In this document: one piece after another, positions 3,712 to 43,612 of the stretch
Layout: the number at the start of each line of letters is the position of its first letter
Numbering within the stretch: position 1 is the stretch's first letter
Source of the DNA: Phyllosticta citribraziliensis
Taxonomy: Eukaryota
DNA: 64,000 nucleotides
Assembly: GCF_038025025.1 (NCBI RefSeq)
Contig: NW_027117339.1
Location: 2,108,001-2,172,000, forward strand
Reading direction: 5' to 3'
Made by a program: the position numbers and the translations under genes
The notes under the pieces: generated by a model
Told to the model about the DNA's origin: nothing
Database searches by the model: none
What the model saw: the letters and a program-made list of their open reading frames with translations, nothing else

Positions 3712-5124
3712 TCAGCCCGCCCTCCTCCTCACCCCACCAATCAACTTCCCCCACACATTCCTCACACCCCGGCGAAGCCCAGCACGCCGACCGCCGCCGC
3801 CGCCACCGCCACTGACCGAACCGCAGCGTGCCACCAAAGAGGTCCGCGCATCAGAAACAGGCCGGGGAGGAGCGGGGTTTGTTGCGGGAGGCGTCGCAGC
3901 AGTAGGCGACGGGCGAGGCGGCGGCGGCGTCGTCGGCGGCGTCGGCGGCGGCGTGCGCGGATCTAGGAAGCGTTCGGGTTGCGGTTGCGGCGGACAATGC
4001 GAGGGAGCAGAAGAAGGAGAGGAGGTGGAGAAGGGGGACGGAGGCCGCGGCGTCGGCGTGCGCGGGTCCAGGAAGCGTTCGTGTTGCGGCCATTGCCAGA
4101 GGTCCAAGGGGGCGATTGGGGACTCGACTCGGCCACCCTCTTTGCCATCTCCGTCTTCTTCTTCTTCTTCTTCTTCTTCTTCTTCTTCTTCTTCTTCTTC
4201 TTCTTCTTCTTCTTCTTCTTCGTAGTCGTCCGCGTCGTTTGGTCTTACAGGCGAAGACGTAGTCGTGGGATCTGTAGATTCGCTCCATCTACTCGGATCA
4301 GGAGGTCGGGGCGTGGTCGAGATGGAGTCGGCCGAAGGCCGCGGGGACTCTTTCTGTTCCGACATGCCGTCTTCCCGTGTAACTGATGTCGTCGATCTGG
4401 CAGCCGTCGATGAAACGCTACCGTCGTCGTCGTCGTCGTCGCTGTCGCTGGCGCCTTCGTTGACTTCTCGCAGGGTGCTGCTGCCGATGCTGCTCATGCT
4501 TTCTTCCAAGTAGTCCTGGTATGCCTTGGGATATGCACTGCCCAAGTCATAGTCATACTCCTCCTCCTCGGTTCTTTGCTCGTCATAATGGGCTTCCCCA
4601 TTCATTCCCCAGAGGCCGGTGTTCTCTTCGACCGCGGAGTGAGACCGGGACCGGCTAGGAGTGTAGACAAGAACGGGGACTAGATTCGTAGCCATCGACA
4701 AGGTCCTCGCCGTGTAAACGCCGCTGGTAGGGGGCTTGGAAGGGAAAATATGCCAACTACTAGATTCGTCGGCTGACACTGATGGCAGGGTGGTGTTGGG
4801 TGGGAAAAGATCGGGAGCTCCAATTGGGTCTGGGGCCGCATTCTCAGGATGCGGGAACGTGAATTCGAGAGACTTTCTCTTCAGTTTGGGTGATTGGTCT
4901 TGATGGGATAGAGATGGCATGGGTCGCCAGCACCAGAGACATTGACATTCTCCGACATGAGGGCGGACAATGTGGTTGGGGAGGTCGAAGGGAATGACAG
5001 CAATTGGATCTGGTTCCTCCGGGGAGGCTGCCGTCGAGCATGGTTGCGCCAACGCTTCAGGGCTTTGCTGGTCGTGTGCGTGACTAGGCGATGCCATGAG
5101 ATCCTCGAGTAAAATGTCGTCCAT
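3712..5124 (-). CDS. Hypothetical low-complexity Pro/Ser/acidic protein with poly-Glu (ORF open to 5259; likely start MDDILLEDL at 5124)
   Basis: 515-codon uninterrupted ORF convergent on ace1; no recognisable domain. Confidence 0.5.
   Translation of the reverse strand: MDDILLEDLMASPSHAHDQQSPEALAQPCSTAASPEEPDPIAVIPFDLPNHIVRPHVGECQCLWCWRPMPSLSHQDQSPKLKRKSLEFTFPHPENAAPDPIGAPDLFPPNTTLPSVSADESSSWHIFPSKPPTSGVYTARTLSMATNLVPVLVYTPSRSRSHSAVEENTGLWGMNGEAHYDEQRTEEEEYDYDLGSAYPKAYQDYLEESMSSIGSSTLREVNEGASDSDDDDDDGSVSSTAARSTTSVTREDGMSEQKESPRPSADSISTTPRPPDPSRWSESTDPTTTSSPVRPNDADDYEEEEEEEEEEEEEEEEEEEEEEDGDGKEGGRVESPIAPLDLWQWPQHERFLDPRTPTPRPPSPFSTSSPSSAPSHCPPQPQPERFLDPRTPPPTPPTTPPPPRPSPTAATPPATNPAPPRPVSDARTSLVARCGSVSGGGGGGGRRAGLRRGVRNVWGKLIGGVRRRAG
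4156..4221. repeat. Perfect (TTC)22 microsatellite, encoding poly-Glu on the minus strand
   Basis: Read directly from the sequence. Confidence 0.97.
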
Positions 5125-5876
5125 GGTGCCGAATGGTCTCCACTGATCCTGTAGTTCTCTTCTCTCCTGACATAGGTGCAAGTCTTGCACACGCGTGCAG
5201 AATCGGTGAAGCTGTGCAAAGGATCGGAGAAAGAGAAAAGAAACCTTTGAAAAATACATGGAGAAATGCAGTCTTTAATGGCCGACGGTTGCCGCTAGAG
5301 AAGTGACTGCTCTCACGGCCATGGAAAACGGTCTTCGCCGGCCAAGTTGGCCGACCAGGAGAAAGAAGTCACAAGGCGCCATTGGGCAGAGAAGCGCCAA
5401 AATCAGTTCTCAAAAGGGCAAGCCGTTGCAATTTTGGTGCGGCTGTCCGAAGATAGCATCAGGTCGAGTGCCGTGGAAGGTTGATACTAGGTCATGAACG
5501 GGATGGCTCATCGAGACCACTTCCGTTTTTCGTCCCCTGCTAAAGAAAGTCGCAATAATCGTCCCCGAAGCTTTCGAATGGACTAGTACTCACCACACCC
5601 TGTGACGTCAAACATCGTCGACGGGGCTTGCGAGTAGAGCGTATCATTTCGTTCATCCCTTGTTCCGGACGGTAGATGGGATTCGGTGGCAAGAACGGTG
5701 CGGAGCCAGCCCATGAGCCTGAGCAAAGGGATGGCCTCGAGACAACAGAGGTTGGGTTGATTTCCTTCCTTCCTTTCGCGCTTCTCACAAAACACACCAG
5801 CCAAAGATAGCATGTGCGGCAGCGGACGCTGCCCATTCAACATTTTCTCGCTTCGTCTCCAAACGCTTTTTTCCCT

Positions 5877-7695
5877 TTAAGCCTCCTCTTCTGCGAACCT
5901 TTCAAGCAGCCCGACATTCCAGTCGCCCATCTTCTTTGCACTGGCCGGGATCCAGGCACCGCTGCTCCTCAATCTTTCTTTCAGCGCAAGGAAAACATGC
6001 ACCGGCAGTCTCGCCTCTTCAACGCTCAAAGAGAGCCTGTCGAGTGCTTGGCCCTGTTCGTGGTCCGGCTTGAGATGGGCCGCAGGCTTCCACATGACCT
6101 TCATTGCACGCGCCGGGTCGGTCGTGCCATGGTCGTTGGAACCGCCGGCATGTGGAACCGAAGAGGAGAAGGAGAGGTCAGGTGTGAAGACCCAGATCTG
6201 TGGTGGTGTTCTTAATTAGCTTGCCACTTCTCGTACTAAGATTTAAGAGGTGGGAGGGTAGCGACGCACTTCGATGGGCTCCAAGCTCTCCCCATCCTCA
6301 TCGGCCTTGCTTGCCTGTAGTTCATCGTCCGGGACCACCGTGAACTTCCTGACTCCTTGATTCTCGATCAAAGATAGAAGCTGCGCGGAAACCCACTTCA
6401 GCGGGCTGTATGACTTGGGCGAAGGGGCGTCTTTGCATGTGACGGACAAGCTCCACTTCCAAAGGCGGAATCCATTACTGCGGTGGTCGAAGAGGCCGAC
6501 ATGAGAGTTGCACGAAGAGCAGAGCAGATGTGAGCGCTGATCTGAGGAACTGTGTGTAGCAAGCTGGGAAAAGTCAGAACAGGAACTTGGCAAGAAGTTG
6601 TGGTATTGCTTGACGATGTGACTGATCGATTTTGCTACTATACATTGATGATGTATCTTGTTTTAATCGCCCCCGCCCTGTAAGTTGCCAGGCAGAAGGC
6701 TGAAAGCCAAGACAGAGACTGGCGCAGCAAGCAAGAACCGCATCATTTGCACGAGCAATGAGGGTACACAAACCCGCTGCCACCTGTCTTGTTCTTGTTG
6801 GACATTTGTATCGAAGACCGCGCCATTGATTCAACCAAGGTTGGGCCTGGCCTCCTTCTTGTTGCCCATACCTCTTCAAAAACGAAGAGCACAGAGAGAG
6901 AAGCGAGAACGCGCATGGGGGATGTTGTGCCTTGTTCGCCTGACACGAGCCGAAGCCGCTGGGGATGCTCGCAAGAGGGATTCTTACCTTGACGCCGGTG
7001 CAATCTTCTTCGGCAAGCAGCAAGTGTGCAAGATCCACGAAGCCTACGCCCTTTCTTGCCGTGAGCCTGTTACTGGCAGCATAGCCTTTTCCGCGTCCTG
7101 CATGATTGTTGTTACCATGGCTATGCTCGTCCGGTTTGTGGCAATGCCAAAAGTCCATCATTTCTGCCCAATTCTCATTCGGCAAGTCAAGCCATGACTT
7201 GACGCCCATACGTGTGTTCTCCGCACCACCGCCATTTGCGCCCTCGGAACTGGGGTCGCTTTCGTCATCGTTCCGCTTGGGGTTCGCAACGGCCAGCTGT
7301 GCTCCACACTTTGCGCACTTGACACTCTCAGCTGCTTCCAGCTGGCGAGCATCCCAGGGCACCACATTCTCAGCACCCTGCCTCGATCGCAGCAAGCCGG
7401 GGCTCTTTTCCTGCAACTGCAATCGGAGCGTCAATTCCTTGCTCGGCGCCTGAGGCAGCATCAAAGCTGCGGATCCCCCGCCTGCGATCTGCGTGGGAAG
7501 GCGAATGGAGGCGGAGTGGCCTTCATGGGTGAGGGTCAGCGTTTCGCCGTCGGCAGAGAGAACAGCCTTGGTTTCGGACGTGTGCGCGGTGCGGAGCGAC
7601 GCGAAGAGCGTGACGGTTCGGATGTGGAGAAGCAATTCGGCATAGAGGTGCAGTATCGAAGAGGGCTCGGTGGAAGGCGACGGTGGACGAGTCAT
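5877..7695 (-). CDS. IPA1: Ipa1/UBE3D-family protein (HECT_2, E2-binding); exons 7695-6988, 6563-6270, 6197-5877
   Basis: LPNENWAEMMDFWHCHKP signature, CAKC and CSSC pairs, RLWKWSL, IWVFTPD and AMKVMWK blocks. Introns 6987-6564 (gtaaga..ctgac..cag) and 6269-6198 (gtgcgt..ctaat..cag) join the frames. Confidence 0.85.
6649..6867 (-). ncRNA. Intronic box H/ACA guide RNA (snR81-like 5' hairpin), predicted U2 snRNA pseudouridylation guide
   Basis: Hairpin 1 at 6867-6800 with pocket AAGAA/GATAC and H box ACAAGA at 6798-6793, 14 nt from the pocket. Terminal hairpin at 6713-6655 with pocket GCTTTCA/GATTAAAA and ACA box at 6654-6652, also 14 nt from the pocket. Confidence 0.8.
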
Positions 7696-43498: not shown

Positions 43499-43612
43499 TG
43501 CGTCGGCCGGGAATCGAACCCGGGGCTGATCGAGGCTGGGAAAGAATGGTGTTGAGATGCTCAAGCTGACTTTCCATGGCAACGATCAATTTTACCACTA
43601 AACCACCAACGC
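43499..43612 (-). tRNA. tRNA-Gly (GCC) with a 43-nt intron (43576-43534)
   Basis: Acceptor stem GCGTTGG/CCGACGC, D arm GTTT-AGTGGTA-AAAT, anticodon stem GATCG/CGATC with loop TT-GCC-A^T, T arm CCGGG-TTCGATT-CCCGG, and a T6 Pol III terminator just downstream (43495-43490). Confidence 0.95.

Follow-up and report, generated by a model that had tools for sequence, protein, structure and literature searches.

A probable box H/ACA RNA in an intron of Phyllosticta citribraziliensis with two pockets complementary to U2 snRNA

Introduction

Does the long first intron of an ordinary protein gene of the fungus Phyllosticta citribraziliensis encode a guide RNA for the pseudouridylation of U2 snRNA, and which positions of U2 would such an RNA serve? 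The question is raised by a locus in the window analysed here, i.e., the whole stretch of 64,000 nucleotides from contig NW_027117339.1 (positions 2,108,001 to 2,172,000), in which a preliminary description placed an H/ACA RNA with both pockets directed to U2. The textbook eukaryotic box H/ACA RNA has the form hairpin-hinge-hairpin-tail, in which the hinge carries the H box (ANANNA) and the last hairpin is followed by ACA. Pseudouridines (Psi) in the branch-site region and in stem II of U2 shape the assembly of the spliceosome. Target recognition requires bipartite pairing, with 8 bp or more flanking an unpaired U-N and a distance of 14-16 nt between the target U and the box; experimentally, pocket pairing needs no fewer than 8 bp, distributed over the two sides (PMC6049503, in part).

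It is very probable that the locus encodes a genuine H/ACA guide within the intron, an RNA of an already known kind. We also think it likely that intron 1 of the host gene, a member of PF09814, encodes on its sense strand a box H/ACA RNA of ~215-220 nt which guides the modification of U2 at positions 42 and 61. This reading is built on the anatomy of the RNA, the spacing of its boxes, its complementarity to fungal-type U2, the low chance frequency of such matches, the asymmetry between the two strands and the conservation of a block in a relative, all of which were observed. Positions below are those of the window.

Host gene and host intron

The gene carrying the locus matches PF09814 (HECT_2) over its full length in three exons (Table 1) and is assigned by this sequence match to the Ipa1/UBE3D family; yeast Ipa1 is presumably a member of the same Pfam family. 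Both introns are supported by the continuity of the Pfam profile, which leaves exon 1 at position 194 and enters exon 2 at 199, with a change of reading frame, and passes from 277 in exon 2 to 285 in exon 3. The first intron is 424 nt long vs. 72 nt for the second, and as far as 6574 it has no stop in the frame of exon 1. The preliminary description had named the host as IPA1, an RNA-processing gene, and had placed the RNA in a 424-nt minus-strand intron; the family match agrees with the former, and the GT..AG ends and the CTGAC branch site confirm the latter at 6987-6564.

Structure of the candidate RNA

Table 1. Coordinates of the host gene and of the elements of the candidate guide RNA in the window.
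Feature	Positions	Strand	Remarks
Host gene exon 1	6988..7695	minus	PF09814 profile positions 1-194, E = 4.7e-50
Host intron 1	6564..6987	minus	424 nt; 5' GTAAGA, branch site CTGAC 6577-6573, 3' CAG
Host gene exon 2	6270..6563	minus	PF09814 profile positions 199-277, E = 7.3e-19
Host intron 2	6198..6269	minus	72 nt; GTGCGT..CTAAT..CAG
Host gene exon 3	5880..6197	minus	PF09814 profile positions 285-369, E = 1.5e-15
Candidate box H/ACA guide RNA, ~215-220 nt	6649..6868	minus	From fold, guide scan and end of the aligned block
5' guide hairpin	6799..6868	minus	Lower stem 6868-6863/6804-6799, upper stem 6855-6849/6819-6813
Pocket 1, 5' strand	6856..6862	minus	Core AAGAA 6860-6856, complements U2 U44-U48; from sequence and scan
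Pocket 1, 3' strand	6805..6812	minus	Core GATAC 6812-6808, complements U2 G37-C41; from sequence and scan
H box and tandem second copy	6787..6798	minus	ACAAGA 6798-6793, ACAAGA 6792-6787
Middle hairpin in the hinge, extra	6716..6789	minus	No pocket and no box of its own; from fold
3' guide hairpin	6654..6714	minus	Lower stem 6714-6708/6660-6654, upper stem 6700-6689/6680-6669
Pocket 2, 5' strand	6701..6707	minus	GCTTTCA, complements U2 UGAAA (and G, then C/U where present)
Pocket 2, 3' strand	6661..6668	minus	GATTAAAA, complements U2 UUUAAUC; from sequence, scan and U2 tally
ACA box	6652..6654	minus	14 nt past the upper stem of the 3' hairpin

The lower stem of the 5' hairpin is formed by GGGCA (6867-6863) and TGTCC (6804-6800), to which folding adds the pair U6868-A6799, and the upper stem by GGAGGCC and GGTCTTC. 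The H box follows exactly 14 nt after this upper stem and fits ANANNA. When the whole 228 nt and each hairpin alone were folded with RNAfold, the predicted hairpins were recovered with open pockets, and the minimum free energy (MFE) fold had the order hairpin-H-hairpin-hairpin-ACA. Both the 5' and 3' hairpins are in the MFE fold and both boxes are present, as is characteristic of H/ACA RNAs. The departure from the textbook form is the extra hairpin of 74 nt in the hinge, which follows the H box and precedes the 3' hairpin.

Stability of the fold is strand-specific: the whole RNA had z = -1.88 on the minus strand vs. +0.64 on the opposite (plus) strand. Separately folded, the 5' guide hairpin reached an MFE of -23.4 kcal/mol (z = -2.06) and the 3' guide hairpin -25.1 kcal/mol (z = -2.11), and the middle hairpin had z = -0.91.

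Every element of the preliminary description, which had listed two hairpins with pockets, an H box, an ACA and the 14-nt spacings, was found in the sequence. The same description had called the RNA scaRNA-like. Cajal-body scaRNAs carry in their terminal loops a UGAG CAB box, which drives localization to the Cajal body, and UGAG occurs nowhere in the 219-nt RNA; the likeness is therefore confined to the class of target, U2.

Conservation in relatives

The most divergent relative contig (record 4 of run X4) aligned to the region in three pieces at 80%. The piece 6430-6580, consisting of exon 2 and 17 nt at the 3' end of the intron, has 20 differences in 151 positions, and the piece 6967-7150, exon 1 with the first 21 nt of the intron, has 32 in 184. 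Between them and inside the intron, the piece 6699-6867 has 27 differences and 2 gaps in 169 positions, i.e., its similarity is on the level of the exons. In place of 6581-6698 and 6868-6966 the contig has 120 and 94 dissimilar letters, respectively. Because its flanks have changed in length, by 5 and 2 nt, the block does not belong to a retained coding frame. It stops at 6867, the first nucleotide of hairpin 1, and includes the middle hairpin. At its other side no alignment at 80% was obtained in this contig for 6698-6652, where the last hairpin has its upper stem, its 3' guide strand and the ACA.

Among the 40 differences listed, eight fall in the 216-nt RNA vs. 16 in the 120-nt 5' flank of the intron, and among the nine indels listed the RNA holds one and the intron flanks eight. 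The guide strands carry no change among the differences listed. C6797 is replaced by G in contigs from X4, X5 and X9, which turns the H box into AGAAGA and keeps ANANNA. Two substitutions of the middle hairpin, G6728>U and A6747>C, fall on predicted pairs, where they are the sole alternative letters in all four runs, and neither is compensated among the differences listed. In one X4 contig a U-G pair of the 3' upper stem is lost through U6696>A. Altogether, no compensatory pair changes were seen among the differences listed for the close relatives and the one divergent contig.

Two observations concern run X5, the label of which ('RNA?') is a guess. Folding the RNA with the six substitutions listed for this run, a set too incomplete to serve as evidence, kept hairpin 1 and refolded the middle and 3' parts. 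One X5 contig ends at 6565, at the 3' splice site, and another spans exon 1 through the RNA to ~6626, with no coverage of 6566-6629; the layout is compatible with RNA-derived contigs, but no inference is drawn from one study with a guessed label.

Complementarity to U2 snRNA

Pocket 1 forms 5+5 bp around the U of GUAUC-U-G-UUCUU in fungal-type U2 and leaves U42-G43 unpaired, the target being U42 in yeast numbering (vertebrate 41). Pocket 2 forms 7+5 = 12 bp with UUUAAUC-U-N-UGAAA, extended to 13-14 bp if the next letters of U2 are G and then U or C, and its target is U61 in yeast-type numbering, vertebrate 60. On the metagenomic fungal-type U2 both pockets follow the recognition rule, with 5+5 bp and at least 7+5 bp, respectively, and an offset of 14, and the pairs adjoining the unpaired U-N are intact in both. 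The pairing of 10 bp only in pocket 1 was counted against the guide reading.

The abundance of the second site was estimated from 110 copies of fungal-type U2 among 119 metagenome loci; all 20 loci tested were Rfam U2, at 101-161 bits. The sequence UUUAAUC-U-N-UGAAA is present in 71 of the 110 copies (38 of the 63 distinct 40-mers), and the other 39 copies are without the exact site; C59A and U60 variants were among those seen in the tally. A motif search for U2 in a collection of genome contigs yielded 95 loci, used only to check that the columns align without indels; every variant tallied was TTCTT[A/C]TCAG, taken to be of animal or protist type, and none of the variants tallied from these loci was of the fungal TTCTTTTCAG type. 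The collection of viral contigs gave no match to the U2 motif.

How often would such pockets arise by chance? With nt 1-110 of a fungal-type U2 verified in Rfam as the target, both strands of the window (128 kb) were scanned for 5+5 Watson-Crick pairs flanking an unpaired U-N, together with an upper stem of 5 bp, a lower stem of 4 bp and a box 13-16 nt away. Exactly two matches were found, pocket 1 with target U42 and pocket 2 with target U61, each with its box at an offset of 14. Of 150 dinucleotide-shuffled versions of the window, two had a single match and none had two, and when 2000 shuffled U2 targets were run against the real window, 57 gave one match and none gave two. Reversed and antisense U2 had no match in the real window. 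The nulls thus amount to 0.013-0.03 single matches per window, never two. The scan and the pairing agree with the earlier claim of 5+5 bp at the yeast Psi42 site, and the stem-loop IIa sequence which the preliminary description had given for filamentous ascomycetes, with a target at about human U60, has turned out to be real.

Weighing the alternatives

It seems rather unlikely to us that the locus is a real H/ACA snoRNA with rRNA or some other RNA as the chief target of one pocket or both; the 3' pocket, for example, might keep the 25S site of snR81, and the fit to U2 stem-loop IIa would be secondary or unused. H/ACA pockets often have several targets and complementarity alone is no guarantee of modification in vivo (PMC8522698 and PMC5824354, both in part). 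Indeed, the 3' pocket of yeast snR81 constitutively directs Psi1051 of 25S (PMC6049503, in part), and its action on U2, at Psi93, is conditional and induced by stress (PMC5809436). However, two U2-fitting pockets with the correct geometry never appeared in the 2000 shuffled-target controls, pocket 2 makes its 12-14 bp with the commonest form of fungal-type U2, and the position homologous to U61 is pseudouridylated in mammals (PMC8522698, in part, and PMC7960923, in part). Complete lack of a stable RNA we regard as improbable: hairpins and boxes would then be products of chance, and the conserved block an element regulating the splicing or transcription of the host gene. The intron open in the exon-1 frame and the lack of covariation among the differences listed could be explained in this way, as could the Rfam result given below, but the scan nulls, the strand-specific stability, the end of the conserved block exactly at the base of hairpin 1 and the unequal flank lengths, which leave no retained coding frame, all argue for an RNA.

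Could the RNA be a direct ortholog of Saccharomyces snR81, with unchanged functions, that homology searches miss? Rfam presumably includes a model of snR81 (Rfam/HACA_26). In an Rfam search, a check that the preliminary description had proposed, region 6400-7100 matched no family at E <= 10, snR81 included, two meaningless lncRNA fragments apart; for the whole window the gathering thresholds were passed by a tRNA alone. The 5' pocket fits the U2 Psi42 target of the snR81 family, and the sequence and structure model of that family is not matched. Similarly to the RNA described here, snR81 of Saccharomyces cerevisiae is a double guide, the 5' pocket of which directs Psi42 of U2 with U42-G43 left unpaired (PMC6049503, in part). 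Unlike snR81, however, the candidate is intronic, has three hairpins and carries a 3' pocket fitting U61 in stem-loop IIa of U2, and there is no sequence or structure homology detectable with Rfam. Moreover, in the available part of a survey of fungal snoRNAomes the snR81 family is traced within Saccharomyces only (PMC5824354). Unchanged orthology is accordingly very improbable, and we retain the intronic guide for two U2 positions as the preferred reading.

Predicted function and significance

As established for intronic snoRNAs, Cbf5, Nop10, Nhp2 and later Gar1 would bind the nascent intron, and after splicing and debranching the intron would be trimmed by exonucleases to the protected RNP. 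The RNA should accumulate and bind Cbf5, and we infer that native U2 of the fungus carries both sites and is modified there. The 5' pocket would pair with G37-C41 and U44-U48 of U2, i.e., perform the task of the snR81 5' pocket. The 3' pocket would pair with UUUAAUC and UGAAA(G) of stem-loop IIa, leaving U61-C62 unpaired, so that U61, homologous to the position of mammalian Psi60, may be converted to Psi.

We give about an even chance to this being the first natural guide RNA for a pseudouridine in stem-loop IIa of U2 (yeast-type 61, mammalian Psi60). For mammalian Psi60 a review table of 2021 lists the guide as 'NR' (not reported), and neither guide nor enzyme is given (PMC7960923). Positions 54-61 of U2 have no mention in PMC3884663 or PMC5473140. 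Concerning filamentous ascomycetes, the Neurospora survey predicted no snRNA pseudouridine sites and the Aspergillus fumigatus screen found no H/ACA RNAs experimentally; no guide for U2 pseudouridylation is reported in these or in the available part of the fungal snoRNAome survey (PMC5824354). If the assignment is true, U2 of filamentous fungi has an RNA-guided Psi in stem-loop IIa, this modification is of ancient origin, and the search for the missing guide of mammalian Psi60 gains a concrete pocket sequence to start from. It would also mean that in an snR81-like RNA, here intronic and with three hairpins, the second pocket has exchanged an rRNA target for U2. The locus offers a specific, deletable RNA with which Psi42 and the Psi in stem-loop IIa could be tested in a filamentous fungus, and it suggests that ordinary protein genes may conceal U2 guides in their long introns, out of reach of Rfam.

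Related guides in vertebrates and fission yeast

H/ACA guides for U2 are also found in vertebrates, among them ACA26, which we take to be SCARNA4. ACA26 is assigned to Psi39 and Psi41, the latter corresponding to yeast position 42, and U92/SCARNA8 to Psi43 and Psi44, so that a dual guide for U2 is not unprecedented; neither of the two is assigned to Psi60 (PMC7960923). These vertebrate scaRNAs localize to Cajal bodies; the RNA described here is devoid of UGAG. A fungal H/ACA guide for the branch-site region of U2 is pugU2-43/44 of Schizosaccharomyces pombe (BK009173), which is located downstream of RPC10, whereas the present RNA is intronic, and uses its 3' pocket for positions 43 and 44 (PMC5473140). 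It is supported by experiments, while the RNA in Phyllosticta is predicted from sequence. Absent from the earlier snoRNA lists, pugU2-43/44 was found by means of a search with pocket sequences (PMC5473140).

Host Gene and Intron

The candidate RNA lies on the sense strand of a three-exon gene (minus strand, 5880-7695), inside its first intron (Table). Pfam places the exons in PF09814 (HECT_2), which includes human UBE3D and yeast Ipa1. With the end of exon 1 at 6988 and the start of exon 2, in a different reading frame, at 6563, the stretch between them is an intron, of 424 nt vs. 72 nt for intron 2. The exon-1 frame continues through 6574-6987 (minus) for 138 codons without a stop codon, so that a transcript keeping the intron would code for a long, aberrant tail. 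A coding role for this open frame is made less likely by the length changes seen in a relative (99 to 94, 118 to 120).

Table. Features of the host gene and the candidate RNA
Feature	Position	Strand	Basis or remark
PF09814 profile coverage, three exons	1-194, 199-277, 285-369 (profile)	minus	Pfam
Intron 1, 424 nt	6987-6564	minus	GTAAGA 5' end, CTGAC branch site, CAG 3' end
Hairpin 1 lower stem	6868-6863/6804-6799	minus	sequence and fold
Hairpin 1 upper stem	6855-6849/6819-6813	minus	sequence and fold
Pocket 1 strands	6862-6856 (core AAGAA), 6812-6805 (core GATAC)	minus	sequence
H box ACAAGA	6798-6793	minus	14 nt past hairpin 1 upper stem
Middle hairpin, 74 nt, irregular	~6789-6716	minus	fold
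Last hairpin lower stem	6714-6708/6660-6654	minus	sequence and fold
Last hairpin upper stem	6700-6689/6680-6669	minus	sequence and fold
Pocket 2 strands	GCTTTCA 6707-6701, GATTAAAA 6668-6661	minus	sequence
ACA box	6654-6652	minus	14 nt past last hairpin upper stem

Structure of the Candidate RNA

The hairpins, pockets, H and ACA boxes and 14-nt spacings of the preliminary description, which had proposed a hidden H/ACA RNA with both pockets fitting U2, agree exactly with the sequence. RNAfold of the whole 228 nt gave these hairpins with open pockets (z = -1.88), and the guide hairpins folded singly took the same structures, again with open pockets (z = -2.06 and -2.11). Folded by itself, the middle hairpin was unremarkable (z = -0.91), and the opposite strand folded no better than shuffles (z = +0.64). 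The H box is tandemly duplicated (ACAAGA ACAAGA, 6787-6798, minus); the 14-nt spacing is kept by the first copy only, and in the predicted fold the second is partly taken up by the middle hairpin, at its base.

Predicted U2 Targets

Sequences of U2 were drawn from public collections with a 20-nt branch-site-region motif, part complement of pocket 1 and part known U2 sequence, and the pairings are scored on metagenome fungal-type U2. The motif found no loci, and hence no fungal-type U2, in viral contigs, 95 loci in prokaryote genome contigs (all of other U2 types, the fungal type not being found there) and at least 119 in metagenome contigs. Rfam assigned 20 of 20 metagenome loci to U2 (101-161 bits), and an HMM from 19 of the Rfam-tested U2 loci recognized U2 in 118/119 among the matches listed.

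Pocket 1 pairs with U2 G37-C41 and U44-U48; as had been claimed, the pairing surrounds U42 and leaves U42-G43 unpaired, the target arrangement that the accessible text of PMC6049503 gives for yeast snR81 at its 5' pocket. The pocket 1 site was within the search motif, so its occurrence in the recovered loci is no test of this pocket. For pocket 2 the loci do provide a test: the stem-loop IIa sequence proposed as its target, UUUAAUC-U-N-UGAAA, was recovered, among the matches listed, in 71 of the 110 fungal-type U2 copies with at least 40 nt past the motif (38 of 63 distinct sequences), the remaining 39 differing at one or more positions. With this form pocket 2 makes 7+5 pairs, rising to 13-14 in nine copies among the matches listed that continue with G (six GU, three GA). 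Its target U is position 61 when the GUAGUA start is numbered 34, as in yeast, and corresponds to vertebrate position 60, where animal-type U2 copies, aligned to the fungal type without indels, also have U. Experiments put the minimum at 8 bp over both sides (PMC6049503, accessible text); each pocket has more than this, and the pairs adjoining U-N are intact.

At least nine of the metagenome fungal-type U2 genes (L154, L205, L175, L132, L161, L181, L187, L191, L107) gave two HMM matches separated by an insertion of ~45-55 nt. The breaks follow model positions 53-70, within or just past stem-loop IIa, and in the first five of these genes the break sequence begins GTATGT, GTGAG or similar. The insertions look like spliceosomal introns, which are known in U2 genes of a few fungi. 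Tandem arrays of eukaryote-type U2 occurred on contigs filed as bacterial MAGs (L001-L011, where the repeat is ~1.4 kb, L019-L023, L034-L047, L075-L080 and others), presumably host or eukaryote DNA binned in.

Chance Controls and Interpretation

A purpose-written snoGPS-like scan demanded an unpaired U-N flanked on both sides by five Watson-Crick pairs, a 5-bp upper stem immediately above the guide strands, a 4-bp lower stem, and, at 13-16 nt from the top of the pocket, ANANNA or ACA, the target being nt 1-110 of one Rfam-verified fungal-type U2. On both strands of the whole window it found two matches, pocket 1 (U42) and pocket 2 (U61). Dinucleotide-preserving shuffles of the window gave a single match in 2/150 cases and two matches in 0/150; shuffled targets against the real window gave 57/2000 and 0/2000, and reversed and antisense U2 gave none. 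Since both matches fall in one RNA, in the correct order and in the sense orientation of an intron of unusual length, and given these null controls, the double U2 match is no chance pattern.

That the candidate is a real H/ACA RNA of whatever function is highly probable. It is also likely, with somewhat less assurance, that it forms an intron-encoded box H/ACA guide RNP pseudouridylating two positions of U2, the snR81-type one, which adjoins the branch-site recognition sequence, and another in stem-loop IIa. Biogenesis by the intronic route and catalysis by Cbf5 would then be expected from what is established for intronic H/ACA RNAs. The main rival, that one or both pockets chiefly serve another RNA, agrees with the statement, in the available part of PMC8522698, that a complementary site is not always modified in vivo; set beside the double match, this rival is considered unlikely. 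Within the reach of the sequence, fold, scan and metagenome U2, the preliminary observation is confirmed and the U2 guide interpretation supported.

Conservation in Relatives

Sequencing runs of other organisms sharing part of the stretch were aligned to 6400-7150 at 80% likeness. In the most divergent contig (X4 record 4), 6430-6580 (exon 2 and the last 17 intron nt) has 20 differences in 151 nt, 6967-7150 (exon 1 and the first 21 intron nt) 32 in 184, and the intron interior, 6699-6867, 27 differences and two gaps in 169, while 6581-6698 and 6868-6966 are exchanged for 120 and 94 unlike letters. Inside the intron, the alignment extends from the first nucleotide of hairpin 1 through the H box and the middle hairpin into the 5' side of the last hairpin, whose 3' two-thirds gave no alignment in this contig at 80% likeness.

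The listed differences, which exclude those of this contig and have 86 further rows outside them, number 40: eight in the 216-nt RNA, 16 in the 120-nt 5' intron flank, nine in exon 1 and seven in exon 2. Eight of nine listed indels lie in the intron flanks and one in the last hairpin upper stem. None of the listed differences touches the guide strands. C6797>G changes the H box to AGAAGA, still satisfying ANANNA, and C6820>U and A6848>U are at internal-loop positions. Of the three listed substitutions at predicted pairs, the middle hairpin has two and the 3' upper stem one, at a U-G pair, and no compensatory stem changes were seen among the differences listed.

Comparison with Known Guides

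Despite the snR81-like 5' pocket, the candidate falls outside the snR81 family: the Rfam search proposed in the preliminary description, run on the region around it, gave no family match even at E <= 10. A UGAG motif is absent from the RNA. In the accessible parts of the sources, a fungal snoRNAome survey (PMC5824354) follows snR81 only within Saccharomyces, the 3' pocket of snR81 guides 25S Psi1051 (PMC6049503) and, under stress, U2 Psi93 (PMC5809436), and vertebrate H/ACA RNAs are each assigned two U2 positions (PMC7960923). A dual U2 guide is therefore not new in principle, and the candidate would add one more to an already known kind of RNA.

As far as the available texts go, no snRNA pseudouridine sites were predicted in a survey of Neurospora, an experimental screen in Aspergillus fumigatus detected no H/ACA RNA, and the first U2 guide of S. 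pombe was reported in 2017 (PMC5473140). Psi60 is reported in U2 of human and rodent (PMC8522698), its guide being entered as 'NR' in a 2021 review table (PMC7960923), and the texts reached by our literature search held no description of a fungal guide for the stem-loop IIa position. The candidate would thus close a gap in the U2 guides of filamentous fungi and supply a natural pocket for a U2 position without a known mammalian guide.

Other Features of the Window

A long ORF that follows the host gene closely and in the same orientation (3712-5274, minus) contains a run of ~25 glutamates and proline-rich stretches. At 43499-43612 (minus) the 71 positions of the Rfam tRNA model are all matched, across 114 nt, probably by an intron-containing tRNA gene.
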